From an uncultured Clostridia bacterium (GTDB lineage: Bacteria > CAYTYR01 > UBA6262), in assembly GCA_964441745.1 (NCBI GenBank), contig CAYTYR010000011.1, forward strand, positions 56,477 through 76,476: a stretch of 20,000 bases of DNA, read 5' to 3'. The position numbers were made by a program, and so were the translations under genes. Below, piece by piece: positions 2,537 to 19,613 of the stretch (position 1 is its first letter; each line of letters begins with the position of its first letter). The notes below the pieces were generated by a model, which saw only the letters and a list, made by a program, of their open reading frames with translations, was not told the origin of the DNA and ran no database searches.

Positions 2537-3073
2537 TTATAAATTGGGAGTATAAAGCAGAATACCAGCCAGGCCGGCTCCAGCCAGGATGTAAAGAATA
2601 TTCAGCTTGGTCGCTGTCGCCAGGGTAAAAGCAGCCAAGGCAATAAAAATGGACCGGAAATCACTGATCCCTTCCCTGGCGATAGAGAGCGCGGCAGTCA
2701 GGACCAGGGAGAGAACCACCGGAGACATCGCCGAGAAAAAGATTTTAACTGATTCTTCGCCTTTGGCCAGGTATTTTTTGAAAATATAATATAATAAAGA
2801 CACGATAATTATAGATGGTAATATTACCGCGATTGTCGCTACTGTACTGCCGAGCACTCCTCCCACCCGGTAACCGACAAAGGTGGCGCAATTGATCCCT
2901 ACTGGGCCAGGGGTCATCCCAGCCACTGCCACTACCTGGTAAAATTGGGGCAAGGTCAGCCAATGATGGATGGTAATGATCTCTTTTTCGATCAAGGGGA
3001 TAGTGGCATAACCACCGCCAAAACTAAAGATCCCGATCTTGAAAAAAGAAATAAATAACTGCCAGAAGATCAT
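2537..3073 (-). CDS. Short-chain chromate transporter (CHR family), second subunit
   Basis: FFKIGIFSFGGGY and TPGP motifs, 178 aa hydrophobic; ATGA overlap with the upstream partner. Confidence 0.9.
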   Translation of the reverse strand: MIFWQLFISFFKIGIFSFGGGYATIPLIEKEIITIHHWLTLPQFYQVVAVAGMTPGPVGINCATFVGYRVGGVLGSTVATIAVILPSIIIVSLLYYIFKKYLAKGEESVKIFFSAMSPVVLSLVLTAALSIAREGISDFRSIFIALAAFTLATATKLNILYILAGAGLAGILLYTPNL

Positions 3074-3606
3074 GCTTTTCTCCGGTAGGTAATGAATAAG
3101 GCCACGGCCAGGCCCAGAATTATGATCAGTATTGGATTTATTTGCCAGAATACCAGTAAAGCCGTGGCTACTAGCAAAGCTGCATATTGATAAAAACCTT
3201 TAAGGTTTTTCCGCGCCAGGACAAATACCACCGCCGCGATCACCCCGCTGGTGGCTGGTACTGCTCCTTGGAAGAAAGCTTTCAGCCAGGTGGTTTCAAA
3301 ATACCTCAGGAACAGCATAGCGATCAGCAGGATAGAAATAAAAGATGGCAGGACCGCTCCCAATAGCCCGCTTAATGCCCCGCTAAAACCATTCAGTTCC
3401 CAGCCGAGAACCAAAGAGAGATTAACCGCCATCACTCCGGGTGAAGACTGGGCAATGGTCAGAAAATGCATGAAATGTTCTTCGCTGATCCATTTTCTCC
3501 GGTCGACGACCTCCTGCCTGATCAGAGGCAGCATGACAAATCCGCCGCCGATGGTGAAAGCGCCGATTTTAAAGAAACTCAGGAATATTTGAAGATTTTT
3601 ATTCAT
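3070..3606 (-). CDS. Short-chain chromate transporter (CHR family), first subunit
   Basis: FFKIGAFTIGGG, EVVDRRKW, AQSSPG and LPSF motifs; 178 aa; paired arrangement typical of short-chain CHR proteins. Confidence 0.9.
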   Translation of the reverse strand: MNKNLQIFLSFFKIGAFTIGGGFVMLPLIRQEVVDRRKWISEEHFMHFLTIAQSSPGVMAVNLSLVLGWELNGFSGALSGLLGAVLPSFISILLIAMLFLRYFETTWLKAFFQGAVPATSGVIAAVVFVLARKNLKGFYQYAALLVATALLVFWQINPILIIILGLAVALFITYRRKA

Positions 3607-3643: not shown

Positions 3644-3672
3644 AAAAACCCCCGGAGTTTCCTCCGGGGGTT
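3644..3672 (-). terminator. Rho-independent terminator after the Spy/CpxP-like gene
   Basis: Perfect 11-bp stem AACCCCCGGAG / CTCCGGGGGTT with a 4-nt loop, followed by a T tract on the minus strand. Confidence 0.85.
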
Positions 3673-3700: not shown

Positions 3701-4141
3701 CTATTTCTTTTCCATCATCGGCATTTCTTCCTTCAGCGACTGACACTCTCCATTCTTGTGCCTTTCTCTCATCCTCATCCGGCCCATCCCTCTGCCTTCG
3801 CCCATTTTCTTCTGCATTTCTGCTTTCATTTCATCAAATTTCTTGGCCTGATCCGGGGTTAATACCGCCTTAACCTTTTTTTCGCGGGCATCACGAACGG
3901 CTTTCATCTCCTCCTGCGTTTTATCCATGATCGCACTCACCTTATTTTTCTGCTCCGCAGTCAGATTAAGCTCCTTGGCCATCCGGTCGAGCCGCTTGGC
4001 TTGCCAATCTCCCTGTTTCTGCTCCATTTTCCCATCCGGCGCGCATGGGCGCTGGCATTGGCGCTGCATCTCCCTGGCCAAAGCCAATCCAGCTCCAAGC
4101 ATAAAAACACTTACTAATACTACCCCTAACAATTTCTTCAT
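3701..4141 (-). CDS. Spy/CpxP-family (LTXXQ) periplasmic protein
   Basis: Signal peptide ending LALA, two LTxxQ motifs (LNLTAEQK, VLTPDQAKKF), and Met/Gly/Arg-rich flanks. Confidence 0.85.
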   Translation of the reverse strand: MKKLLGVVLVSVFMLGAGLALAREMQRQCQRPCAPDGKMEQKQGDWQAKRLDRMAKELNLTAEQKNKVSAIMDKTQEEMKAVRDAREKKVKAVLTPDQAKKFDEMKAEMQKKMGEGRGMGRMRMRERHKNGECQSLKEEMPMMEKK

Positions 4142-4214: not shown

Positions 4215-4250
4215 AAAAAAAAGCCATCCCGGATCATCAGGGATGGCTTT
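4215..4250 (-). terminator. Rho-independent terminator of the TetR-TolC-adaptor-RND operon
   Basis: 11-bp stem AAAGCCATCCC / GGGATGGCTTT with a 9-nt loop and a long T tract on the minus strand. Confidence 0.85.
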
Positions 4251-4271: not shown

Positions 4272-7200
4272 TTACTTATTAAGCGGTAGTTTGGCCTTAC
4301 TAAACTTACCGGTAAACCAAACTTTAAGCCTCTCTATATACAATAAACAAATCGGCACAAAGACAAAAGTGAACAAGATCGAGGCGAGGATGCCTCCAAC
4401 CATTACCGCGCCCATGGACCTTTCCATTGACTCACTTGACCATAACTGCGGCAACACTCCCAGGATAATAGCCAGCGAGGTCATTAATATGGCCCTGAAC
4501 TTGTCAGACGCGCCCAGCCAGAGCGCTTCCTTAACCTCAATTCCTTCTTTCATCTTTTGTAAGGCATGATCCAGCATCAGGATGGCGTTATTGACCACGA
4601 TACCCACGACCATAACCATCGTCAACATCGAGGCCATATTTATGGACATCTCCATAAAGAATAACGCATACATAACACCAATATATGAAGTGGCCACAGT
4701 GGTCATGATCACCAGGGGATAGATCATTGAATCCAGGACCGCGCATAAGAGCATGAAGGTCAGGATCACTGCCAGGATGAAAGCCGTGCTTATCTCCTGG
4801 ACAGATTCTTTTTGCATCTCAGCCATGCCGACATAATCATAGCCATACCCTTCCGTGAACGGCAGTTTTTTAAACCGCGCGTCCAATACCTGTCTCACGT
4901 AGCCAAGGGACGACTTGGACAAATATCCTTCCAGGCGTATGACCCGTCTCTTGTCCGCGTGCTTGATCGACGGCAGGGATTTGTCATTCTTAAGCGTCCC
5001 CAGGGCAGTGATCGGGATCAAACCCCTGGTAGATACTAAGGAGATCTCCCGCAGGTCATTGAAATCCACGGTATAGCCTTTATCTAATCCGACATGGATA
5101 TCGTATTCTTCACCCACTTCTTTATACTTATTTTCATCATTACCGTAGATAGAAGAGCGGATCGCCGGACCGATCTTATCGGCAGTCAAACCATATTGGA
5201 CGAGCTTCTTCTGGTCAGGTATGAATTGCAGTTCCGCTTTGGGCGTTTTATAAGAACAACTCACTGAACGGAAATATCCGGTTTTTTCCATCTCTGTTTT
5301 CATGAGCTGGGAAAGTCCGATCATCTTATCGTAATCAACGCCATAGAGATCAATAGAAACATCGCCAGCCGATCCGGCCATATGCTGGCCGCGGCTGACG
5401 TCGATCTCGGCATCAGGGATCTGCGCCATGAATGGAATAAGCTCATTAATGATATCCAGATCGCTGCGCTTACGTTCGGCGGCAGGCTTAAGATCAAGCG
5501 TTATACTGGCATTTTCCACTCCGTTCTTGCCGATATTCGTCAGTATTGATTCTTTTTCCGGAATACTGTTCAGCCTTTTTTCAATAGTGAGCACTGTCTC
5601 CAATGTGCGTTCAATTGTTGATCCTTGCGGCATGGCAATACTGATCATGACCTTGTCCGCGTCTGATGAAGCCATAAAATCAGAGTCTATATAGGGCAGG
5701 ATGAATAACAGCGACGCTAAAAGAATGACCACGAACAATATAGTGGCTTTCGGGAATTTAAACTGCAGGTCGAATAAATACTTAGTTTCCTGTCTCAGGA
5801 AATCAACCATTTTAGTGGTCCAATTCACCACCAGCCGGAGAGGATTATTGTTTTTCTTTTGTTCCGGCTTTATATCTTCTTTTTTCAATAACAATCCGCA
5901 AAGCATGGGCGTTAAGCTATACGATGCCAGCAAGGAAAACGTAGTGGCATAGATAATGGTTAGTCCAAACTGGTGCATGAATAAACCTATTATTCCGCCC
6001 ATCATAGCCAAGGGCGCGAATACCACCAGGTTAGTGCCGGTGGAGGCAAAGACTGCCACCGCCACTTCCTTGGTGCCGGCAATCGCCGCCTGTCGCGGAT
6101 CTTCATGATGCTCCAGATGCACCAGGACGCTTTCCACGATCACAATGGCATTCGCGATCAAAGTACCCAGGGAGGTGGCGATCGCCATCAGGGTGATCAT
6201 ATTAATGGAGAATCCCGATCCGCTGATCGCGGCCAGGGTAGAAACCAGTGAAGTGGGAATAACTATGCCGGCAATGAAAGTCAGCTTGGCTTCCCCGGTA
6301 AAAAAGTATAAAATGAGCACTGTTAAGAGGATACCGATAAAAATGCTCCAGTATGTATTATTGGTCCTGTTGATAATGACCGGCGTAGTGTCTGAGGCAA
6401 TATCCAGATCCATTCCTTTGGGCAGGCCGGCGCGGAATTCATCCAGCCGTTCGTTCATAGCCCGGGAAATATTGACCGCGTTACCGTCACTGACCATATT
6501 TACTGACAGCCCCACCACATTCTTCCCGTTAAAGCGGGCCATAGTCTCCACTTTCTTGTAACTATCCTCAACCTTGCCGATATCCTTCAAGGGGAAGGAT
6601 GTCCCATCCTTGGAAGTGATCACCATATCCGCTATCTTGGACACATCTTGGAATTCCCCGATAAAACGGACATTCAGGGAAGAACGGTCCTTTTCCAGCA
6701 GGCCGCCGGGGATATTCTGGTTCTGGGCTTTGATCGCGTTGATCACTTCAGAAATAGTGATATAATGCTGTTTCATCAGCACCGGGTCCAGTTTTACTTC
6801 TATCTGGCGCTCTTTTCCGCCATAAACATCCACCTTGGCCACACCGGACACGGAAGATACTTTATTTTTCAGGGTTTTATCCGCGTACTCATAGAGCTTC
6901 AGGCCGTCCATATTGTCGCTGTAGAGTACCAGGTCCATGACCGGGGTCATCAGCGGGTCAAACTTTTCAATGACCGGTTTTTCGCATCCGTCCGGCAAGT
7001 CATTCTGGATCGCCTCAACCTTATCCTTGACTTCAATCGATTTAACATTAACACTTGTTCCCAGTTGGAACTCAATAAAGATCATCCCGTAATTATCATA
7101 TGACTGGCTGCTGATATTCTTGATCTCTGATAACTGTGAAACCACGTCTTCGATCTTTTTGACCACCAGCGTCTCCACTTCCACCGGCGTGGCGCCGGGG

Positions 7201-7346
7201 TAAGTGACGGCTATGGTGACGATCGGGAAATCGATCTTTGGTGAGCTTTCAATCGGTATCTTAGCTAAAGCAAATACACCCAAGACCACGAAAACCAATA
7301 CGAACATTATGGTAGTAACAGGACGTTTTACAAAAAATTCAATCAT
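4272..7346 (-). CDS. RND efflux permease (AcrB/AcrD/AcrF, HAE1-like) with atypical TM4/TM10
   Basis: 1024 aa; FFVKRPV start, YPGATPxEVE, NIPGG, ARFNGK, SLTPML and RAILMTSLA motifs; two periplasmic loops and about 12 TM segments. Confidence 0.95.
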   Translation of the reverse strand: MIEFFVKRPVTTIMFVLVFVVLGVFALAKIPIESSPKIDFPIVTIAVTYPGATPVEVETLVVKKIEDVVSQLSEIKNISSQSYDNYGMIFIEFQLGTSVNVKSIEVKDKVEAIQNDLPDGCEKPVIEKFDPLMTPVMDLVLYSDNMDGLKLYEYADKTLKNKVSSVSGVAKVDVYGGKERQIEVKLDPVLMKQHYITISEVINAIKAQNQNIPGGLLEKDRSSLNVRFIGEFQDVSKIADMVITSKDGTSFPLKDIGKVEDSYKKVETMARFNGKNVVGLSVNMVSDGNAVNISRAMNERLDEFRAGLPKGMDLDIASDTTPVIINRTNNTYWSIFIGILLTVLILYFFTGEAKLTFIAGIVIPTSLVSTLAAISGSGFSINMITLMAIATSLGTLIANAIVIVESVLVHLEHHEDPRQAAIAGTKEVAVAVFASTGTNLVVFAPLAMMGGIIGLFMHQFGLTIIYATTFSLLASYSLTPMLCGLLLKKEDIKPEQKKNNNPLRLVVNWTTKMVDFLRQETKYLFDLQFKFPKATILFVVILLASLLFILPYIDSDFMASSDADKVMISIAMPQGSTIERTLETVLTIEKRLNSIPEKESILTNIGKNGVENASITLDLKPAAERKRSDLDIINELIPFMAQIPDAEIDVSRGQHMAGSAGDVSIDLYGVDYDKMIGLSQLMKTEMEKTGYFRSVSCSYKTPKAELQFIPDQKKLVQYGLTADKIGPAIRSSIYGNDENKYKEVGEEYDIHVGLDKGYTVDFNDLREISLVSTRGLIPITALGTLKNDKSLPSIKHADKRRVIRLEGYLSKSSLGYVRQVLDARFKKLPFTEGYGYDYVGMAEMQKESVQEISTAFILAVILTFMLLCAVLDSMIYPLVIMTTVATSYIGVMYALFFMEMSINMASMLTMVMVVGIVVNNAILMLDHALQKMKEGIEVKEALWLGASDKFRAILMTSLAIILGVLPQLWSSESMERSMGAVMVGGILASILFTFVFVPICLLYIERLKVWFTGKFSKAKLPLNK

Positions 7347-8035
7347 TATTTGTCTCCCCCATCCATGATCCTCACCCGGTCCCCTGGCTTGATTAAAGCT
7401 TGGCCCTGGGATATCACTATATCCCCCGGCTTAAGCCCAGAGCTGACGATAGATCCATAGCCATTCCTGGCCTTGACAGATATCTGTGTTTTTACCGCCA
7501 TACCATCTTTAATTTCCCAGACGTAGTATTTGTCACCGACTATATCCACGATCTCGTTAGGCACAGAGATCGCCTTCTCATAAGTATTAGTACAGGCATA
7601 AGCCACCAGGATCTGCCCTGGCTGGCCGGTTACACCGTTAAAATTGATCCGCACGGGAAACATCCCGGTATTCATATCCAGATTATCGTCCACAGAAGCC
7701 ACGACGCCCTTGATCCGCCCTTGAGCAGTCTCGACATACGTTTCCTGGCCGGCAGCCAGTTTGCTACGCACATCCCTGACCACAAAACCATTACCGCTCA
7801 TAGGGGAGGACAACCGAATGGATACTTTAGTATATTCTTTAACCGCTTTTTCCGCTATCCGGTTAACCTGTACCGGCTTTCCCTTCTTATCCCATTCCTC
7901 CAGCATGCTGACGATCTGTTTGGTCCGATGCCCCCTGACCACGTTCTGCTTCCAAAAAACCGCCAGTACGCAAACCAGGATAATTAAGACATACCCTTGT
8001 GCCCTGATACTGAACTTGCTCATTAATTTTGCCAT
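7346..8035 (-). CDS. RND periplasmic adaptor subunit, unusually short (229 aa)
   Basis: N-terminal membrane anchor, KPVQV strand, beta-barrel motifs (KLAAGQ, KGVVASVD, DMNTGMFPVR), AISVP and SGLKPGDIVISQGQ. An alternative start at 8023 gives a TAATG overlap with tolC. Confidence 0.85.
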   Translation of the reverse strand: MAKLMSKFSIRAQGYVLIILVCVLAVFWKQNVVRGHRTKQIVSMLEEWDKKGKPVQVNRIAEKAVKEYTKVSIRLSSPMSGNGFVVRDVRSKLAAGQETYVETAQGRIKGVVASVDDNLDMNTGMFPVRINFNGVTGQPGQILVAYACTNTYEKAISVPNEIVDIVGDKYYVWEIKDGMAVKTQISVKARNGYGSIVSSGLKPGDIVISQGQALIKPGDRVRIMDGGDK

Positions 8036-9333
8036 ATTAGTTTCCCTGCCATTTTCTCGATTTTAGCTATCGTCGCGTTAAGATTGAACAACGTAACTTG
8101 CAGTTTAAGCTTTCCGCTCGTCAGCAACAGCTCTGAATCATTCAGGTCAGTTAAAGAAACTTGTCCTGAAGCCAGCAGATCCTGCATCATTTTAAATGAA
8201 TCCTGAGCCAGTTTTACCGCGGCTTGATTGGCTGCCAGGGTATCAATATACTCGTTGTATTCGGCGACCGCGTTATTTAGCTCCAAGACCATAGCTTTAT
8301 CAACCATCTGCAATTGCAGTTGAGCGTTTTGCAGGTCGATCTTGGCCTGCTGTAATTGGGAGGAAGTCTGCCCGCTGGTCCACAAGGGGACGTTCATTTG
8401 TAAACCAAACACACTATAACCATCAAGATTATTATCGCCAATATAGTAATCCGTACCGCCGCCCTTGTAATCCCAGGTCGCAAAAGCAGCTATGGTCGGG
8501 TAATAACCGGCTTTCCTGATCTTGGTTAATTCCTCATATACGGCTATATTCTGGTACAGAGCTTGCAGTGTCGGTTCATTTTCCCGCATACTCTTAACCA
8601 GGGCCGGGCCGTCCAGAGGCTTATATTCGGCGGCATAGGTATCTGTCATTATAACCTCTGCTTCGGGAGCCGCACCGATCATTACTTTTAAGCCACGCAA
8701 AGCCGAGCTTAAGCTGGTACCGGCTTCATTTACCTGGGGGACTCGCGCGGCAATATCAGCGTCCATTTTGATAATATCCCGCCTTGAACTGCGGCCAGCG
8801 GAAGAACGCTGGATCACCAGTTCCTTATTTCGCCTGGTATTCCCCAGGGATTCCTGCAATATATCCAGCGAGCTTTTCGCCAGCAAGGTGCTATAATAGC
8901 GTATCTTAGCCGCATAGATAACCTCTTGTTTTGTCGTATCTTTATTCATGCGGCTGCCGGCCAGCAACTTGTCAGCCAAGCGCACCGCTGATGAAACTTT
9001 GCCAAACGACCAGACGATCTGGCTCGCCGTTATGCCGGCATCAAACGCATAATCAGTCATTTGCGCTTTCGCCTTATCAGGATATTCATAATTGTTTAGC
9101 CAGGTGACCGCGCCATTAACCTGCGGGTAGATCGCTGATTTGGCTTCGCGATACTGTTGCTCCAGTTTCTTTACCGTATTATCCTGGATCTGGTATTGTT
9201 CGCTTTCGATGATCGCCTTATTGATCACCTGTTCCATGTTCAAGCTCAGGATTTCCTGTCCCTGCGCCTGGCTGGCCGCCGGGCAAAGGAACCTGATCAT
9301 GACCACTATCATTACTAGCTTGTTCATTCTCAT
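8023..9333 (-). CDS. TolC-family outer membrane efflux protein
   Basis: Signal peptide, two OEP repeats (AIYPQV...ASQIVWSFGK; AGYYPTI...MNVPLWTSG), long helices and SGQVSLTDL. Confidence 0.92.
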   Translation of the reverse strand: MRMNKLVMIVVMIRFLCPAASQAQGQEILSLNMEQVINKAIIESEQYQIQDNTVKKLEQQYREAKSAIYPQVNGAVTWLNNYEYPDKAKAQMTDYAFDAGITASQIVWSFGKVSSAVRLADKLLAGSRMNKDTTKQEVIYAAKIRYYSTLLAKSSLDILQESLGNTRRNKELVIQRSSAGRSSRRDIIKMDADIAARVPQVNEAGTSLSSALRGLKVMIGAAPEAEVIMTDTYAAEYKPLDGPALVKSMRENEPTLQALYQNIAVYEELTKIRKAGYYPTIAAFATWDYKGGGTDYYIGDNNLDGYSVFGLQMNVPLWTSGQTSSQLQQAKIDLQNAQLQLQMVDKAMVLELNNAVAEYNEYIDTLAANQAAVKLAQDSFKMMQDLLASGQVSLTDLNDSELLLTSGKLKLQVTLFNLNATIAKIEKMAGKLIWQN

Positions 9334-10013
9334 TGATTACCCCTGTCGTATTTTCTGTCTAAAGCTTTCCACAGCAACTTCAACATCTTCCTATTCCAGA
9401 ATTTAAGGTCTTTGATTTTTTCTCTTTTAATCGCTAATGGTATCCCAGCCAGAATCGTTTTCAGGAAGAGCACTGCTTCATTGACATCTGTCGTCTCTGG
9501 CAATTCCTTATTTTTAACCGCCTTTTTAAGGATCTCTTCAAAATAGTCTTCAAACAATATCAATGGCGGGTTGATATCTTCTATACCCGCGCACTCGGGA
9601 AAAGCAAAATGCTTTTCTGCTTTAGTGATCTTGGTCCTATGTCCTATAACCTGTTTCTGCCCGATAAAAGCAGCAATGATCTCATAGATCAAATTAGTAC
9701 AATTTTCAATGGCTTCCCCTAAATAATAAAAAATATTATCGATATTATTCAGATAATTTTTTTCGTCATTTTTCTGGTCTGCTTTCCAAATGATATGGGA
9801 AGTTATCAAATCAGTAAAATACCGGATGACATCTATTTTGCGCGGGAAATAGTTGAAAAAAGTCCCCTCCGCCACTTCCAGATCAGCGCATAATTCGCTG
9901 ATACTGATCTCTTCGAAACGTTGCGTCTTAAGCCGCTCGATAAAAGCGTAAACCAGGGAGAGCTTGGTTTTCGCGTGTTTTCTTTCCCTTAAGGAGTATT
10001 TATCCTGGTCCAT
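9330..10013 (-). CDS. TetR/AcrR-family transcriptional regulator
   Basis: SLRERK...ISISELCADLEVAEGTFFNYFPRK helix-turn-helix; GGAGG RBS; ATGA overlap with tolC. Confidence 0.92.
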   Translation of the reverse strand: MDQDKYSLRERKHAKTKLSLVYAFIERLKTQRFEEISISELCADLEVAEGTFFNYFPRKIDVIRYFTDLITSHIIWKADQKNDEKNYLNNIDNIFYYLGEAIENCTNLIYEIIAAFIGQKQVIGHRTKITKAEKHFAFPECAGIEDINPPLILFEDYFEEILKKAVKNKELPETTDVNEAVLFLKTILAGIPLAIKREKIKDLKFWNRKMLKLLWKALDRKYDRGNQ

Positions 10014-10043
10014 CGAAAACCTCCCTTATTTTAATGTTACCTT

Positions 10044-10076
10044 TATATATATAGCACACTATAAATATATTGTCAA
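10044..10076 (-). promoter_or_regulatory. Sigma70 promoter of the efflux operon with an overlapping palindrome (candidate TetR operator)
   Basis: TTGACA(10076-10071)-N17 with TGn-TATATA(10053-10048). An imperfect inverted repeat at 10044-10069 pairs 10 of 11 positions around a 4-nt centre. Confidence 0.65.
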
Positions 10077-10147: not shown

Positions 10148-10717
10148 TTACCAGGTATGGTTCACTCGAACACCTAAATATGAAGTACCTGCCGCTGGCT
10201 GGATATTCCAATCTTGATTTGGCTTGGTAATAAAAAAAGAGCTGACAAAGCCAATTGCCGCTCCGGCCAAAACATCCCGTATATAATGCTCGTCTGATCT
10301 AACGCGGCTGTATCCCACATACGCTGCAATAACGTAGGCGGGGAGGCCATATTGCCACCCGTAACGCTGACGCAGGAATTCTGCGCCCTGGACAGTAATC
10401 GCAGTATGCCCGGAGGGAAATGATTGAGGATCCCCGTTAGGCCGGCGGGAATGCACTGTGTATTTAAGGGTAACAACGATCCCCATCGCTAATACTGCGG
10501 ATTCAGAGAATTGTTTCATGCCTTCATCATCTTTCGCCCCGAGGGTCATGCCAAAAGCTGCCGCCGGTACGATATAGATCAAAACATCACCAAAGTTCTT
10601 GATCACATCAGTCGGCGTGTTCGATTCTCCGTCTGCCCGAACTACCGAGGCTGCGGACAAACAAAAAAATGCCGCGAACAGGATAAGCACAATAGTTCTA
10701 TGAGCGCATCGCCTCAT
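10148..10717 (-). CDS. PAP2-family phosphatase, paralog 2
   Basis: C1 KYTVHSRRP (Kx6RP), C2 PSGH, C3 SRVRSDEHYIRD (SRx5Hx3D); N-terminal signal peptide. Confidence 0.9.
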   Translation of the reverse strand: MRRCAHRTIVLILFAAFFCLSAASVVRADGESNTPTDVIKNFGDVLIYIVPAAAFGMTLGAKDDEGMKQFSESAVLAMGIVVTLKYTVHSRRPNGDPQSFPSGHTAITVQGAEFLRQRYGWQYGLPAYVIAAYVGYSRVRSDEHYIRDVLAGAAIGFVSSFFITKPNQDWNIQPAAGTSYLGVRVNHTW

Positions 10718-10754: not shown

Positions 10755-11309
10755 TTACCAATTACGGCTTAAATTAACGCCTAAATATGAAGAACTTACC
10801 ACGGGCTGGACATTCCAGCCTTCGTACGGCGTAGTAAACCAATAAGTGCCCACGAAGCCAATTACCGCTCCTGCTAAAACATCCCGCATATGATGCTCAT
10901 CAGCCCTAACGCGGCTGTATCCCACATATGCGGCAACAATGTAAACAGGGAGACCAAATTTCCACCCATAACGTTGGCGCATAAATTCAGCGCTCTGAAC
11001 AACTATCGCGGTGTGCCCTGAAGGGAAGGATTGAGGATCACCATTGGGCCGGCGGGAGTTTACCGTGTATTTTAAGCCGGTGCAAACACCCATTGTTACT
11101 ACCGCAGATTTAGCGAATTGCCACATGCCTGTATTGTCTTCCTCCATGAGGGTCATACCAAAAGCTACTGATGGAGCCATATAGATTAAAACATCACCAA
11201 AGTTCTTCATAATATCACTTGGCGTTTCCGACTCTGCTCGAGCCACCGAAACCCAGAAGAAACAGCAAAGCGACACAAATAGAATAAGCACAATAGCTTT
11301 ATACTTCAT
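10755..11309 (-). CDS. PAP2-family phosphatase, paralog 1
   Basis: KYTVNSRRP, PSGH and SRVRADEHHMRD. The start is reassigned from 11342 to 11309 (MKYKAIVL), which gives an ATGA overlap with the upstream stop and aligns with the paralog's signal peptide. Confidence 0.9.
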   Translation of the reverse strand: MKYKAIVLILFVSLCCFFWVSVARAESETPSDIMKNFGDVLIYMAPSVAFGMTLMEEDNTGMWQFAKSAVVTMGVCTGLKYTVNSRRPNGDPQSFPSGHTAIVVQSAEFMRQRYGWKFGLPVYIVAAYVGYSRVRADEHHMRDVLAGAVIGFVGTYWFTTPYEGWNVQPVVSSSYLGVNLSRNW

Positions 11310-13078
11310 GGTGTATTTCCTTTCTCGGTTTCGTCGCGCCATTCGACTGGGCCGAACCCGGAATCACCAAGTAACGTATAAACAAGGCTGAAGGTTCCTA
11401 GTGACTGATGGCTGTTAGGCCAATCAGGATACGTCGCGTTACGGATGGAGGCGATGTATTGGAGCCCGAGGGCGTGACGGCCATAAATATGGAAAGTAAA
11501 TCCCATATTTAGGCGGTTGATGGATTCAGTTCCACCAGGATCATTTCCTCCCCTGCCAGAAATATAATAAGCACGTTCTGTTAAGTCGAACATGGCTATT
11601 TCGCCGAAGTTTAAGCGGAGCGCGATGAGCCCTTGCGGGGCAACACCATAGTGGTAGTCGCGTTCACCTGTTTGGGCGACATTGCCAGCCGCGGCATAAC
11701 CGATTCCCCCGAGGACCGAGCCCTGGAGCGCTACTACTCGCGAAAGCCACCATTGATAGGTAGTGCCAATAGAGGCGGAAGTGCTAGAGACGCGGAAGAC
11801 ATGCGGGGATATATAGTCATAGCCGCCATAGAGGCCCCATATCCCGCGATAACCGTCGCCAGCCTCGTATTCTTTTCCGAGGAGGAGACCGCGAAGCATG
11901 ATGTTATCAAAAGGGTTAGTTGAGTTGGCGAGAGTGGAGAATTCAAAATGAAAGTAATCGAAAGGACGATTGTAGCTATAGTGAGCCTTCCCGGGTAATC
12001 CATAGGCTATGGAATAGTCAGCAGTCGCTTCGTTTTTATTGATAAGACTATCGTAGCCCTTGTCTTTCAGACTCGAATTAAGACTTGCCCCGAACCGCAG
12101 ACGCCAGGAAATGGCTGGATTGTTGCTTGGAAATACCGGCTTGAACCTTTCTCCAAAGGCCAAGCGATTGATGCCCAGGGAAGGTTTGAGTATCGCCGCG
12201 CTCAACTCGCGCCAGAACCCGGGTTTGTCTCCATGGCTCTCCAGCACCCGGCTAGCCATCCTGAAGAGCGCCTCTCCGAAGAAGCTACCGCCAACACCAC
12301 TGGCGATCTGGTCATTGATCGACGGACGTGTGGTCTCTCCGCCAGTTTCCCAGAGAAAGCTGCCTATGTTGGTATAGATGAATGACTGCCAAAAACTGAG
12401 GCCGGCTGATCGCGCGTAACCATAATACATTAATCCCTGGTACGGATGCCCGAACTGATTCATAGCAAAAGAGTCTGTGTCAACTGTCCAGGGTCCGTGC
12501 AAGACGTGTCCCCGGAAAGTGGACAAACTAGAGGAGTAGACTTTTTTTCCATCCTCCATTAGGTTGGGGTAGATAAGACGGTCAGCCCCGTTGAGGAGAA
12601 GGATGAAAGCCGGGATTTCGAGGGCTGGGATAAGGTAGCTTTTGCCAGACTCTGTATCCCAATATAAGGGCGGTGTCGGTCCCTCGCGCTGTTCCTTTAA
12701 CCACGCATACCTGCCCATAGAGACATTTACAGTCAGGTCCTTTGTTATATCGGAAAGCTCGATAATATTCAAGGCCGTCATATTCCTATATCCATATTTG
12801 GCCGCCAAAAGAGTATATTTTCCTAAAGCTGAAATACTCACTGCGTAGTTACCCAACGCATCGGTAGTCCCTTTTCCTGCCAATTTACCGGTACTTTCAT
12901 CTTTTACCGTGATAGCTACTCCTGGGATACCTTTATCGTTATAGAGATCCTTTACCGAACCCGCGATGGTGCCTCCCTGGGCAAAGACCAAACTAGTGAT
13001 CATGATCACTGCGCCTGAAAGGAGTACAGCGAAAATCGCCTTGAATGATTTCTTAGCTCGTTTCATTGAGGTCCCCAT
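11306..13078 (-). CDS. DUF3943-domain outer-membrane protein with an N-terminal carboxypeptidase-regulatory-like beta-sandwich
   Basis: Signal peptide (VFA|QG) and a GTIAGSVKD...IPGVAI...TTDALGNY domain, then WTVDTDSFAMNQFGHPYQG...ARSAG...LWETGGETTRPSIND...FGEALFR, then a beta-strand-rich C-terminal half. The start may be 13066. Confidence 0.75.
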   Translation of the reverse strand: MGTSMKRAKKSFKAIFAVLLSGAVIMITSLVFAQGGTIAGSVKDLYNDKGIPGVAITVKDESTGKLAGKGTTDALGNYAVSISALGKYTLLAAKYGYRNMTALNIIELSDITKDLTVNVSMGRYAWLKEQREGPTPPLYWDTESGKSYLIPALEIPAFILLLNGADRLIYPNLMEDGKKVYSSSLSTFRGHVLHGPWTVDTDSFAMNQFGHPYQGLMYYGYARSAGLSFWQSFIYTNIGSFLWETGGETTRPSINDQIASGVGGSFFGEALFRMASRVLESHGDKPGFWRELSAAILKPSLGINRLAFGERFKPVFPSNNPAISWRLRFGASLNSSLKDKGYDSLINKNEATADYSIAYGLPGKAHYSYNRPFDYFHFEFSTLANSTNPFDNIMLRGLLLGKEYEAGDGYRGIWGLYGGYDYISPHVFRVSSTSASIGTTYQWWLSRVVALQGSVLGGIGYAAAGNVAQTGERDYHYGVAPQGLIALRLNFGEIAMFDLTERAYYISGRGGNDPGGTESINRLNMGFTFHIYGRHALGLQYIASIRNATYPDWPNSHQSLGTFSLVYTLLGDSGFGPVEWRDETEKGNTP

Positions 13079-17450: not shown

Positions 17451-19613
17451 TTATATATACTGTATAGATTCGGCTAACAGCTTTGGTTCAAACTGGGTTC
17501 CTGATCTGCTTTTCAACTCTGTCAAGGCTTCTTGTTTGCTAACACCTTTGCGATAGGGCCTTATATTGGTCAGGGCATCATAGGCATCCATTATGGAGAA
17601 TAATCTGTCTTCCAGAGGTATTTGCTCTCCTTGTAACCCCTCCGGATACCCCTGCCCGTCCCAGTATTCATGATGATGGAGAATAAGACCAGCGATCGGG
17701 GATAAAGCCTTTGAACGATTAGCGAGATTATATCCTTTTTGAGCATGCTCCTTCATTTTCGCTCTTTCTTCATCAGTCAAAATATCAGGCTTAAATAGTA
17801 TTTTATCCGGGATACTTACTTTTCCCAGGTCATGCACCTTGGCCAATAGGACCAGATTTTTTCTTGTATCATCATTAAGATGCATTTTGTCGGCCATCGT
17901 CTCGGCCATTTTTGAAAGCCGTTCCGCGTGCCCCTGGTTGATAAAGTCTCTTTCGGCTAAGGCGGTTAATAAGATATCGACTATTTCATCCTTGGGGTGG
18001 ACCGTGCGAATATTTTTTATTTTATACATTTCCTCGTCTGCTCTTTGATAAAGTCCATAAATATTTTCGTTTTCATCATCCTGGGAGGTGGCCACCCCAA
18101 TGGACATATGCAGGTGGATGGCCGGATTTTCATTGCTATACGCTTTGACCATATCCGCAATTTCATTCCTTTTTTCGAGCGCGGCGAGATTATCAGTATG
18201 CGGCAGGATAACGCAGAATTCATCGCCGCCTAACCGGGCAACGATATCGATGCGCCTAAAAGGCCTGAGTATTAATTCAGCCGCCGCTTTTAATAAGGCA
18301 TCGCCAGACTGATGGCCAAACGTATCATTTATAAGTTTTAGCCCGTCTATATCTATGGACATGATACTCACGGGAGTCGAACGGGCGAGATCCTTATCCA
18401 GGCGAGTCATGGTTTCCGCGAAATATGTCCTATTATAAAGGCCGGTCAAGGAGTCATGAAAACTAAGTTTTTTAAAGCGTTCTTTGCTTTCAAAAAGCGC
18501 TTTTTCTATATTCCGGCGCGCGGTGATGTTGCGGATATTGCACTGGATCACTTTAAGACCATCGACACCGTACACATTGCTGACGAATTCAACGTCGATT
18601 ATTTTTCCGCTTTTTGTTTGCAGGGGCATATTTTCATACCGGATATATTTCTTAGTTTGCAGTTCCACAAACGCGTTCTTGCTTGTCTCCACGTCTTTTA
18701 TCGGCCCGATCTCCCATAGTTTTTTCCCCACAAATTGTTCCCGTGGATATTCCAGCATATCGATCAAATATGGATTAACGTCAACAATATATCCGGTGTC
18801 CGCATCGAGGATTAAGATACCGTCCTGCGCTGTTTCAAAAAGCCGGCGATAACGCGATTCAGAAAAGCTTAACGCTTCCTCTGCTTCCTTGCGCCCGGTG
18901 ATGTTTTGGACCTGAAATATATAATAAACCGGCACATCCAGCTTATTGTAGATCAGGGACGAATTCAGGGCGATCCAGAGACTAATTCCTTTTTTATTAA
19001 CACAACGTATTTCTAAGCTCGTGTCGTGGTTTTTGCCGTTAAACAGTTTGTCTTTAAACGTCTCTCCCGGACTAAGGTCATTTTTATTGATAATATCAAT
19101 GAAATTCATGGCCAGGAGCATTTTTTCCGTGTACCCCAAGATCTCACATAAAGAACAGTTTACTTTCAGGAAACTACCGCCCGTACCAACCAGGGCCATC
19201 CCAATGCCTGATAATTCAAACATGCTGCGAAATCGTTCTTCACTATCCTGTAATTTATCCGCTACCTTTTTGCTATCATCAATATCATGAAATATTTCCT
19301 GTATTATTTGCTTGCCTTCCACAATAGTCAGCGCTGAGGTCATCTGGACGAACCGTATCGTTCCTGAACTGGATATCACTTCTGCTTCCTCGTCAATAAC
19401 ACCGTATTTTTGGGTAAGTTTAGTGAACATATCAGTATAATATTCTGCTTGCTGGGAAGCATAAATTGTCGAATGATGCCGCCCAACGATCTCTTCTTTG
19501 CTTGATTTAAAGAGTATTTCCGCCGCTTTATTGCAGTTTATGATCAAGCCTGTCTGGGGGTCTGCCCAAATAATCGCATTTTTAGTATTTTGGGTCGTAA
19601 AACTCATTTCCAT
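17451..19613 (-). CDS. Cytoplasmic PAS-PAS-PAS-GGDEF-HD-GYP c-di-GMP enzyme
   Basis: Three PAS/PAC repeats, HDSLTGLYNR, DIDGLKLINDTFGH, RRID-x5-GGDEF (18216-18230), HDLGK, HHEYWDGQGYP and RPYR; no TM segment. Confidence 0.93.
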   Translation of the reverse strand: MEMSFTTQNTKNAIIWADPQTGLIINCNKAAEILFKSSKEEIVGRHHSTIYASQQAEYYTDMFTKLTQKYGVIDEEAEVISSSGTIRFVQMTSALTIVEGKQIIQEIFHDIDDSKKVADKLQDSEERFRSMFELSGIGMALVGTGGSFLKVNCSLCEILGYTEKMLLAMNFIDIINKNDLSPGETFKDKLFNGKNHDTSLEIRCVNKKGISLWIALNSSLIYNKLDVPVYYIFQVQNITGRKEAEEALSFSESRYRRLFETAQDGILILDADTGYIVDVNPYLIDMLEYPREQFVGKKLWEIGPIKDVETSKNAFVELQTKKYIRYENMPLQTKSGKIIDVEFVSNVYGVDGLKVIQCNIRNITARRNIEKALFESKERFKKLSFHDSLTGLYNRTYFAETMTRLDKDLARSTPVSIMSIDIDGLKLINDTFGHQSGDALLKAAAELILRPFRRIDIVARLGGDEFCVILPHTDNLAALEKRNEIADMVKAYSNENPAIHLHMSIGVATSQDDENENIYGLYQRADEEMYKIKNIRTVHPKDEIVDILLTALAERDFINQGHAERLSKMAETMADKMHLNDDTRKNLVLLAKVHDLGKVSIPDKILFKPDILTDEERAKMKEHAQKGYNLANRSKALSPIAGLILHHHEYWDGQGYPEGLQGEQIPLEDRLFSIMDAYDALTNIRPYRKGVSKQEALTELKSRSGTQFEPKLLAESIQYI

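Follow-up and report, generated by a model that had tools for sequence, protein, structure and literature searches.

The window, a stretch of 20,000 nucleotides from an uncultured Clostridia bacterium, carries on its minus strand (positions 10076 to 4215) an RND module that consists, in the order of transcription, of a promoter, a gene for a TetR-like regulator, a gene for an outer-membrane factor (OMF), an adaptor gene, a permease gene and a terminator. The four corresponding open reading frames (9330-10013, 8023-9333, 7346-8035 and 4272-7346) are all intact, with neither frameshifts nor internal stops, and by their coordinates overlap at successive junctions by 4, 13 and 1 nucleotides. The promoter (10048..10076, minus strand), which was read directly from the sequence, comprises a -35 hexamer TTGACA (10076-10071), a 17-nucleotide spacer that ends with TGC (an extended -10), and a -10 hexamer TATATA (10053-10048); a ribosome-binding site, AAGGGAGG, was read in the same manner, and the layout of TTGACA, 17 nucleotides and TATA(T/A)T is also found 5' of orthologous regulators in other genomes. 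The intrinsic terminator (4215..4248, minus strand), likewise read directly, displays a 9-base-pair G+C-rich stem, a 9-nucleotide loop and a T-run. A consensus scanner passed over both elements, owing to the constraints it places on the final base of the -10 hexamer and on the length of a loop (at most 8 nucleotides). The order of regulator, OMF, short adaptor and permease is constant throughout the lineage, and the neighbouring genes in the window are envelope genes, encoding PAP2 phosphatases, OmpA-family proteins, a BON protein and a Spy/CpxP-like protein.

The first gene of the operon (9330..10013, minus strand) encodes a protein of 227 residues that by itself shows weak similarity to TetR in profile searches (TetR_N, E 0.034; MtrR C-terminal part, E 3.8e-6). 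With a profile built from 21 orthologues, the PDB yielded 53 different chain sequences, of which almost all are labelled as TetR-family regulators (best E 1.3e-8); the protein is accordingly assigned to the TetR-family repressors, which have an N-terminal helix-turn-helix and a helical ligand domain. A candidate operator, the palindrome TATAG-N4-CTATA (10050..10063, minus strand), was read directly over the -10 box; it recurs exactly in 12 of 23 regions upstream of orthologous regulators (500 shuffles gave a mean of 0.00), and with at most one mismatch in 19 of the 23 (shuffle mean 0.23), part of the one-mismatch matches sitting on the -35 region rather than on the -10. Repression of the operon probably comes about through binding of the regulator to this palindrome, until a ligand, likely a pump substrate, frees the promoter.

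The second gene (8023..9333, minus strand) encodes a TolC-family OMF of 436 residues with a signal peptide, in which two stretches, corresponding to two repeats, match Pfam OEP (PF02321, E 4.4e-42); its score against TIGR01844 (126 bits) lies under the cut-off of 225. A profile of 20 orthologues aligns along the full length of SilC, CusC and CmeC (profile positions 34-407) and of TolC (48-419); a signal peptide and two OEP repeats over the full length are what is expected of the family. This two-repeat architecture is common to the canonical HAE-1 pumps, which also share with the window operon a local TetR-type repressor (AcrR, MtrR). An earlier note on this DNA had described an operon with TetR and TolC genes, a promoter, a candidate operator, overlapping junctions, a terminator and no frameshifts; each of these elements was recovered on re-reading the sequence, and both gene assignments were borne out by the orthologue profiles and the paired OEP repeats.

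The short adaptor and docking

The third gene (7346..8035, minus strand) encodes an adaptor of 229 residues, recognized by a partial match to RND_mfp (TIGR01730) and by an AlphaFold model. Residues 104-223 are the sole part that matches RND_mfp (profile positions 200-321 of 322), with a score of 61 bits that falls below the cut-off of 94.9, and a Pfam search returned no matches at E<=0.01. The model (pLDDT 94.5) consists of a long N-terminal helix (residues 4-38), one short helix and otherwise beta-strands; past residue 51 it contains no helix except a four-residue turn (87-90), and hence no alpha-helical hairpin of the kind that contacts an OMF. The periplasmic part, approximately 178 residues in length, is wholly assigned in the model to two domains that are neither lipoyl nor hairpin, and which are those that clasp the permease in solved pumps. 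No match to a lipoyl (barrel-sandwich) family was found in the adaptor at E<=0.1, while the adaptors of two Omnitrophota loci, L080 and L081, do produce such matches. The model superposes on the retained domains of BesA, AcrA, MexA, MacA and CusB with Z scores of 12-17. As modelled, then, the adaptor is a membrane helix and two domains only, having lost both the lipoyl domain and the hairpin (two of four domains); the description 'hairpin-less' in the earlier note was correct as to the hairpin and too mild in that the model and the domain search indicate that the lipoyl domain is absent as well.

In an exhaustive HMMER search, 970 representatives of this adaptor family reached E<=1e-3, and 167 reached E<=1e-10. 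For the 150 top-ranking relatives that were listed, the length is 206-243 residues in 139 and 275 residues in one, while 10 are shorter partial matches (110-199 residues); none is of canonical length. One close relative is annotated as 'hypothetical protein' in one source.

The closest known system is the BesABC pump of Borrelia burgdorferi (BesCAB; BesA structures 4KKS, 4KKT and 4KKU), which is a tripartite RND system with an adaptor that, as here, is devoid of an alpha-hairpin. The adaptor model has its closest structural counterpart in BesA (VIA Z 17.3, rmsd 2.5, 179 aligned residues; Foldseek E 8e-11), at a sequence identity of only 10-15%. In one report, BesA is described as a lipoprotein of about 318 codons that has kept its lipoyl domain, and the BesABC-type adaptor as a combination of a lipoyl domain with a beta-barrel domain and a membrane-proximal one, with no hairpin (PMC3807786). 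In contrast, the window adaptor lacks a lipoyl domain and is anchored by a membrane helix; membership in the BesABC type, which the missing hairpin would fit, is ruled out by the missing lipoyl domain (as judged from the model and the domain search). For BesB, 'no major differences' relative to the remaining RND permeases were reported, and besC, encoding the OMF, seems to be the first gene of the Borrelia operon too, judging by the polar effect described for an insertion in besC (PMC2279261).

Since an adaptor without lipoyl domain and hairpin cannot reach the OMF, the latter, which is dedicated to the module and always co-encoded, probably docks directly on the crown formed by the permease trimer, which the adaptors would clamp from the sides. 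Counting against such docking, the OMF looks ordinary in its length and tip motifs, an extended domain for docking is lacking in the permease, and no sequence feature positively marks a new interface. It is also conceivable, and in our judgement very unlikely, that the module is incomplete by itself and depends upon an unlinked partner, which would be a bridging protein in place of the lipoyl/hairpin ring or else an energising subunit. The gap that is spanned by six hairpins in the solved AcrAB-TolC and MexAB-OprM pumps is too wide for a two-domain adaptor, and RND pumps are known to have small accessory proteins, with AcrZ and YbjP present in PDB entries; against this, the overlapping genes leave no space in which a small gene could hide, the permease is followed by a terminator, no additional gene is conserved beside the module across all loci, and a lipoyl or hairpin piece is never fused to or found beside the adaptor among its best 150 relatives.

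The permease and its membrane core

The fourth gene (4272..7346, minus strand) encodes a permease of 1024 residues that Pfam searches and alignments place in the AcrB/HAE-1 type. Pfam ACR_tran (PF00873), a profile of 12 helices and two periplasmic loops, is matched over its full length (residues 1-1000 cover positions 1-1016 of the 1021 in the profile, E 2e-217), and 83 solved RND chains match the permease at E<=1e-20, of which MdtB is the closest (E 7.7e-99). Entries 2hqc, 2hqd and 2hqf, which we take to be mutant forms of AcrB, are found among its PDB matches. The score against NCBIfam RND_permease_2 (NF033617) is 652 bits with a cut-off of 1250, and no equivalog model is reached; matches to MMPL (E 2.4e-10) and to HpnN and SecDF (E between roughly 1e-5 and 1e-4) are weak and confined to the C-terminal membrane half. 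Fold and length are shared with the permeases of the canonical HAE-1 systems (AcrAB-TolC, MexAB-OprM and MdtABC), from which the window module differs, besides its NCBIfam scores, in the following respects: (i) the lipoyl/hairpin ring is absent; (ii) Ala/Ser-Asn replaces Asp-Asp in TM4, and Asn replaces Lys in TM10; and (iii) the genes are ordered as regulator, OMF, adaptor and permease.

In particular, TM4 (residues 384-408; 6123..6197, minus strand) carries Ala398 and Asn399 at the positions of AcrB D407 and D408, and TM10 (residues 904-927; 4566..4637, minus strand) carries Asn919 at the position of K940, followed by Asn920, equivalent to N941. Alignment to MdtB (9lyq_B) and to 8f3e_A likewise places the TM4 'DD' opposite 'AN' and the TM10 Lys opposite Asn, and the relay triad (that is, two Asp in TM4 and one Lys in TM10) is therefore absent from the window permease. 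In the TM11 motif R-x-R-P-I-L-M-T the first Arg (presumably R971 of AcrB) is a Lys, and the Thr (presumably T978) is retained. Position 949, that of the first Arg, holds Lys in 107 of 115 homologues, the remainder having Arg (3), Glu (4) or Thr (1); 111 of 114 retain the TM11 Thr, and residue 951, the next basic position, is Asn in 7 of 114. Because Lys949 and the basic residue at 951 both vary, no single ionisable residue of the membrane core is strictly invariant. By comparison, a set of neutral polar residues is fixed: in the best 120 homologues (48-99% identical) T395 and N399 of TM4 and T438 and N439 of TM5 are present in all 120, as is A/S at position 398, and in those homologues that reach TM10 and TM11 the same is true of N919 and N920 (115/115) and of Q967 in TM11 (113/113). 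The term 'relay-less', which the earlier note had applied to this permease, holds for the equivalents of D407, D408 and K940, and overstates the case for TM11, where the Thr and, in most homologues, a Lys at the first Arg position are found.

Related families such as MmpL3/MmpS, HpnN, SecDF and Dispatched/Patched use transmembrane sites other than the AcrB triad, in some cases coupled to Na+, and the MmpS proteins, which a membrane helix anchors, serve as small accessory partners. To our knowledge, MmpL3, HpnN, SecDF and Dispatched/Patched have all kept one carboxylate or more in TM4 or TM10.

Distribution and maintenance of the two traits

At genome loci with a short adaptor, an OMF gene lies upstream and an RND gene downstream in 34 of 34 cases; the TM4 pair is A/S-N in all 33 readable segments, and TM10 reads NN in 31 and ND in 1 of 32. 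A full-length short adaptor is encoded in 31 of 401 sampled Omnitrophota genomes, and the same 31 have a clade permease at adjacent coordinates. Among 80 metagenome loci, an adaptor of 208-247 residues is present in all 75 that offer at least 650 nucleotides upstream, an OMF in all 62 with room for one, a TM4 without Asp in 73 of 73 and a TM10 without Lys in 64 of 64; these loci were picked by clade-specific permease motifs, and they test whether a clade permease is accompanied by a short adaptor, not whether any Asp-less RND protein is. The counts do not represent independent events, because the compared genomes are related. The co-occurrence of short adaptors with Asp-less TM4, which the earlier note had proposed to check, was found in every case examined.

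The window genome (98% complete) has this permease as its only full ACR_tran gene, and a heterotrimer with a canonical RND protein is for that reason unlikely here. With regard to Na+, the same genome contains Rnf-type genes, as well as a K subunit of V-type ATPase for which the sole PDB match is subunit K of the Enterococcus hirae Na+-ATPase (E 2.4e-31) and in which the residues we take to be the Na+ ligands (L61, T64, Q65, Q110 and E139) are all kept. In roughly 10 of 33 Omnitrophota loci a gene of HD-GYP type and one for a patatin-like phospholipase lie 3' of the permease; the window and the majority of loci have neither.

In the permease tree, the Omnitrophota loci L080 and L081 form a sister branch to the clade. 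They resemble it in having Asn at the TM10 Lys position and hairpin-less adaptors, and differ from it in that those adaptors (292-299 residues) include a contiguous lipoyl-like domain and in that one TM4 Asp is kept ('DN' or 'DA'); judged by these sequences, they look like an intermediate state. That state suggests gradual change, and together with the canonical fold, length and domain order of the permease, and the retention of the TM11 Thr and a basic residue, it would suit an ordinary proton-driven multidrug pump in a distant lineage, where residues were lost by drift, protons pass via residues that canonical pumps possess too (E405, D926 and the TM11 basic residue) and the mechanism holds nothing new. 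Such a pump is nonetheless quite unlikely: any single substitution of D407, D408 or K940 abolishes the activity of AcrB and MexB, the residues that stand in their place do not drift but are invariant, and the loss of the relay is coupled one-to-one with reduction of the adaptor.

All four genes are under purifying selection. Between the window and locus L001, dN/dS is 0.10-0.22 (regulator 0.22, OMF 0.10, adaptor 0.15 and permease 0.11), and for three Omnitrophota pairs it is 0.04-0.22; within the permease, mean column conservation is 0.89 in TM4, 0.86 in TM10, 0.85 in TM6 and 0.83 in TM5, compared to 0.70 overall. A decaying operon or an annotation artefact, in which a truncated adaptor gene accompanies a dead permease, could be read from the scores of the adaptor below curated Pfam and NCBIfam cut-offs and from the 'hypothetical protein' label of its relative, but is extremely improbable given reading frames free of frameshifts and internal stops, the dN/dS of 0.10-0.22, the recurrence of the same architecture in hundreds of full-length relatives from several phyla, and the conservation of the promoter and candidate operator. 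The relaxed selection that the earlier note had named as grounds for abandoning its reading was not seen at dN/dS of 0.04-0.22, and its view of a co-evolved subfamily, rather than decay, is upheld by the co-occurrence of the two traits, the low dN/dS, and conservation that, within the permease, is highest in the transmembrane core.

Coupling and function of the module

We consider there to be about an even chance that the locus encodes a working, TetR-controlled envelope export module of a distinct and widespread AcrB-type (HAE-1-like) lineage, with docking, coupling and repression as proposed here. Being better conserved than the remainder of the permease, the transmembrane core is presumably still a functional site; the coupling ion would probably be bound or relayed by the remodelled neutral polar site, candidates being a proton carried on Lys949 or Na+ held in the Asn/Thr/Gln cluster. 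The favoured reading thus joins direct docking of the OMF to ion coupling by the neutral polar site and a Lys. Counting against it, a positively charged Lys next to a Na+ site would be unfavourable, and Lys949 is replaced in a few homologues (Glu or Thr).

A permease that is not coupled to an ion at all, so that the module forms a passive or substrate-gradient conduit (through which, for instance, an envelope lipid or amphiphile synthesized in the cell would leave downhill) and its polar core serves structure or substrate passage, is unlikely. It would agree with the uncharged equivalents of D407, D408 and K940 in every clade member examined, with a membrane core that has no strictly invariant ionisable residue, with the HD-GYP-type and phospholipase genes that follow the permease at some Omnitrophota loci, and with the envelope genes that surround the module in the window. 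It is opposed by the constraint on TM4, TM10, TM5 and TM6 and by the fixation of seven new polar residues in the helices, which are easier to reconcile with a working than with a retired site, by a TetR repressor at the promoter, which is typical of inducible efflux, and by the absence of the patatin and HD-GYP neighbours in the window and at most loci.

Returning to the ion-coupled export module, it is a tentative suggestion, at well under even odds, that this would be the first natural AcrB-type lineage to work without a membrane-core carboxylate, with transport coupled to Na+, or to a proton on a lone Lys, through an Asn/Thr/Gln site and the OMF joined directly, without an adaptor bridge. 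If true, both the Asp-Asp-Lys relay and the adaptor hairpin/lipoyl ring would be dispensable in the design of a tripartite RND system. In either case the module, with its reduced adaptor and a motor that lacks the acidic residues thought to drive the pump, offers a natural test case for how RND pumps are assembled and powered.

An adaptor without its upper domains and a permease without its charged relay

Tripartite RND pumps are generally regarded as sharing two near-universal features, an Asp-Asp-Lys relay distributed between TM4 and TM10 of the permease (D407, D408 and K940 in AcrB), and an adaptor that reaches the outer-membrane channel. The permease of the module under study (4272-7346, minus strand, 1024 aa) matches the Pfam ACR_tran profile from end to end (E 2e-217) and has MdtB as its best solved relative (E 7.7e-99), but with 652 bits against a threshold of 1250 it stays below all curated NCBIfam subfamily cut-offs; databases label the permeases generically. 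HMMER alignments to MdtB and to 8f3e_A place Ala398-Asn399 at the TM4 'DD' and Asn919 at the TM10 lysine, and the TM11 motif R-x-R-P-I-L-M-T reads K-F-R-A-I-L-M-T, in which, by AcrB numbering, Lys949 occupies the R971 position and T978 is retained as Thr956. A search of the permease helices for a compensating acidic residue returned no clade-specific one, and new polar residues (T342, S369, S377, T395, N439, T863, S887 and Q967) have become fixed in the clade.

The adaptor (7346-8035, minus strand, 229 aa) falls below every curated threshold, with residues 104-223 alone matching the C-terminal third of the RND_mfp profile; this is an annotation gap in which at least one source calls a relative a 'hypothetical protein'. 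An AlphaFold model built from 98 relatives (mean pLDDT 94.5) begins with a helix (residues 4-38) in which the hydrophobic anchor lies; a second, short helix spans 44-51, and only strands follow. Its top structural match is BesA, the adaptor of the BesCAB pump of Borrelia burgdorferi (Foldseek E 8e-11; VIA Z 17.3, rmsd 2.5), with an alignment that covers just 179 of the 275 residues of BesA; against AcrA or MexA, 172-177 residues align. Residues 63-155 correspond to the six-stranded beta-barrel, a domain whose known likeness to the N-terminal barrel of F1-ATPase subunits shows here as well, and structural comparison assigns residues 51-62 and 156-229 to the membrane-proximal domain. Since these two domains account for all of residues 51-229, the adaptor has neither a hairpin nor a lipoyl domain, the two elements that in the AcrAB-TolC and MexAB-OprM structures build the ring and tube reaching the channel. 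The description 'hairpin-less' in the earlier note thus holds for the hairpin and is too mild as a label, given that the adaptor lacks the lipoyl domain as well. With the adaptor as query, an exhaustive HMMER search recovered 970 cluster representatives at E<=1e-3, of which 167 reach E<=1e-10; among the best 150 relatives, 139 are 206-243 aa in length, ten match only in part and are shorter, and one has 275 aa.

The OMF (8023-9333, minus strand, 436 aa) carries two OEP repeats in Pfam, and a profile of 20 orthologues aligns from end to end with SilC, CusC, CmeC and TolC, with no large gaps. Truncation or odd tip motifs were looked for in this protein, and nothing unusual was found.

Co-occurrence, maintenance and ancestry

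The full-length short adaptor is present in three of six genomes of the window's genus (its own included) and in no other genus (nine genomes of the phylum). A search of 401 sampled Omnitrophota genomes returned 33 matching genomes at E<=1e-25, of which 31 carry a short adaptor matching the profile to its ends (one with two copies, and one, G305, with a match cut by the contig start); the other two give partial matches within frames of 292-303 aa. In the regions around these matches, the OMF gene lies immediately upstream and the permease gene immediately downstream of the short adaptor at 34 of 34 loci; TM4 reads Ala/Ser-Asn in all 33 permeases that reach it, and of 32 readable TM10 segments 31 have Asn-Asn, the exception being Asn-Asp. 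The reverse search, with the permease against the same 401 genomes, found 31 genomes at E<=1e-150 (identity 54-65%), which are exactly the 31 with the short adaptor, at adjacent coordinates; these counts come from related genomes.

Broader sampling gave the same picture. Among the best 120 of 937 permease homologues (E<=1e-10 in a collection of 5.8 billion proteins; 48-99% identical to the window's), T395, A/S398, N399, T438 and N439 occur in all, and N919, N920 and Q967 in every sequence of sufficient length. A metagenome scan seeded with two permease motifs yielded 80 loci with 77 distinct permeases, and although these loci were picked by clade-specific motifs and some duplicate the genome-derived ones, a 208-247-aa adaptor was present in 75/75 with at least 650 nt upstream, an OMF in 62/62 with room for it, and neither the TM4 Asp (absent in 73/73) nor the TM10 Lys (absent in 64/64) was retained. 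The lineage comprises hundreds of sequence clusters, mostly from Omnitrophota, with further members in Bdellovibrionota, Elusimicrobiota, Syntrophales and Waddliaceae according to source labels and one Atlas cluster. The whole lineage has shed the hairpin and lipoyl domains together with the charged relay, and the pairing of a short adaptor with an Asp-less TM4 that the earlier note had seen in one operon recurs across genomes.

Some genomes hold more than one pump. One Omnitrophota genome (G159) has the complete module twice, far apart on a single contig (L066 and L067). In another, a canonical pump (L003 3-5773, plus strand; 347-aa adaptor, 1061-aa permease and 499-aa OMF) lies directly upstream of the variant module, and its permease keeps the DD and K residues, so that a single genome can hold both kinds of pump.

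Between the window and a congener (locus L001), dN/dS is lowest in the OMF (0.10), followed by the permease (0.11), the adaptor (0.15) and the regulator (0.22); in three Omnitrophota pairs the permease has values of 0.04-0.10 and the adaptor values of 0.14-0.22. These values speak against relaxed selection, and the module is maintained, not decaying. Conservation within the clade is higher in four membrane helices (TM4 0.89, TM10 0.86, TM6 0.85, TM5 0.83) than in the whole permease (0.70) and its periplasmic loops (0.65-0.72); by this measure the membrane motor is held in a new state, where drift would be the expectation for a motor out of use. The linked traits, low dN/dS and conserved transmembrane core together support the view of the earlier note that the variant has co-evolved and been maintained.

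In a FastTree phylogeny of permeases, the short-adaptor clade is monophyletic, and its sister is a pair of Omnitrophota loci (L080 and L081). The adaptors of that pair (292-299 aa) are BesA-like in that they lack the hairpin and have an uninterrupted lipoyl-like domain. Their permeases keep one TM4 Asp, but the TM10 Lys position is already occupied by Asn, and the pair looks like an intermediate stage. The window permease is nested inside Omnitrophota sequences; this placement, together with the presence of the module in only half of the window's genus, suggests lateral transfer.

Operon layout and neighbourhood

The module forms a single compact transcription unit on the minus strand, from 10076 to 4215. 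Its promoter (TTGACA, a 17-nt spacer and TATATA, with TGC right before the -10 box) is followed by a ribosome-binding site, AAGGGAGG, and by the regulator gene (9330-10013, 227 aa); the three ORF junctions of the module overlap by 4, 13 and 1 nt, and the unit closes with a G+C-rich hairpin of 9 bp and a T-run (4248-4215). Promoter and terminator were read by eye, and a consensus scanner listed neither, since A is the last base of the -10 box and the loop of the terminator measures 9 nt. The TetR_N-like signal is faint in the window regulator alone; a profile of 21 orthologues matched 53 distinct PDB chain sequences, with a best E of 1.3e-8, nearly all of them labelled as regulators of the TetR family. 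Upstream of 23 orthologous regulators, TTGACA and TATA(T/A)T recur at a distance of roughly 17 nt, and a palindrome, TATAG-N4-CTATA (10063-10050 in the window), spans the -10 box; it is exact in 12 of the 23 and has at most one mismatch in 19 (shuffle means 0.00 and 0.23), with a few of the one-mismatch matches sitting at the -35 region instead. This conservation fits a candidate operator for TetR autorepression. The promoter, candidate operator, overlapping junctions and terminator described earlier were all recovered. At one Omnitrophota locus (L060 7688-8494, minus strand), the regulator upstream of the module is broken into two ORFs of 107 and 139 aa, which may reflect a frameshift or a sequencing error.

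Just past the pump terminator lies a gene for a Spy/CpxP-like periplasmic chaperone (3701-4141, minus strand; LTXXQ motif, Spy profile E 5.4e-12). It has a ribosome-binding site of its own, and a 137-aa counterpart occupies the equivalent place in the congener (65% identity, dN/dS 0.13). A perfect 11-bp G+C-rich hairpin (3647-3672), scored by the scanner as terminator-like on both strands, separates it from two overlapping 178-aa genes (2537-3073 and 3070-3606, minus strand), each a full Chromate_transp match, that look like a split two-gene ChrA-type transporter. Directly upstream of the pump, on its strand, are tandem PAP2-family phosphatase paralogues (10148-10717 and 10755-11342) preceded by a 590-aa CarboxypepD_reg/DUF3943 protein (11306-13078), with OmpA-family and BON-domain genes farther upstream; these genes make up an envelope-related neighbourhood. 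At 17451-19613 (minus strand), a signalling protein of 720 aa combines PAS, GGDEF and HD-GYP-type (HD_5) domains. In one Omnitrophota subclade, the permease is followed after 4-34 nt by a gene of roughly 185 aa whose sole domain is HD_5 (L003 11779-12339 and about ten other loci, including L053, L056, L058, L065-L067 and L076), often with a patatin-like phospholipase gene next and sometimes a MarR gene; the window contains none of these three.

Assembly, energization and significance

The closest described system is BesCAB. Its adaptor, BesA, keeps the lipoyl domain that the module adaptor is without, and its permease, BesB, was reported as unremarkable (PMC2279261). BesA, without the hairpin only, was described as 'unprecedented' in one paper (PMC3807786), and another saw in it 'perhaps the biggest challenge' to the tip-to-tip model of assembly (PMC4446572). 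Within a full-text literature that leaves most subscription journals outside, as far as its searchable content extends, BesA was the only described adaptor without a hairpin found, no description of the short-adaptor, relay-less variant was found, and titles and abstracts contained no AcrB-type permease without the relay. The same literature held no paper joining Omnitrophota with RND, efflux and TolC, and none with a phrase on absent proton-relay residues.

Because the adaptor would be too short to span the distance to the channel, and an OMF gene accompanies it in every case, the OMF most likely docks directly on the crown of the permease, and the adaptors would clamp the sides. Direct docking of the channel on the permease has already been proposed for BesABC (PMC2279261, PMC4446572).

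With regard to energization, the frozen state of the polar permease core leads us to infer a working ion or water site. Its chemistry could involve either (i) Lys949 as proton carrier in a hydrogen-bond network of Asn, Thr and Gln residues, or (ii) Na+ bound by a neutral Asn/Thr/Gln cluster. Dependence on a single essential core residue is argued against by the homologues, in which position 949 is Glu or Thr in 5/115 and position 951 is Asn in 7/114. As context only for Na+, the window's genome contains Rnf-type genes (contig C2; L083 and L084) and two V/A-type ATPase proteolipid genes (L086 1204-1713, contig C1; and L085). The double-hairpin K subunit has an E. hirae Na+-ATPase subunit as its sole PDB match and, likewise as context, keeps all the residues that serve as Na+ ligands in E. 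hirae NtpK; the second proteolipid is a single-hairpin form without the ligand pattern. A heterotrimer in which a canonical RND subunit would assist the relay-less one is unlikely in the window genome, since this permease is the only full RND gene found in an assembly that is 98% complete.

The lineage represents a natural experiment on two questions: whether an RND permease can dock and open a channel unaided, and whether the functional-rotation motor can run without its carboxylate relay.
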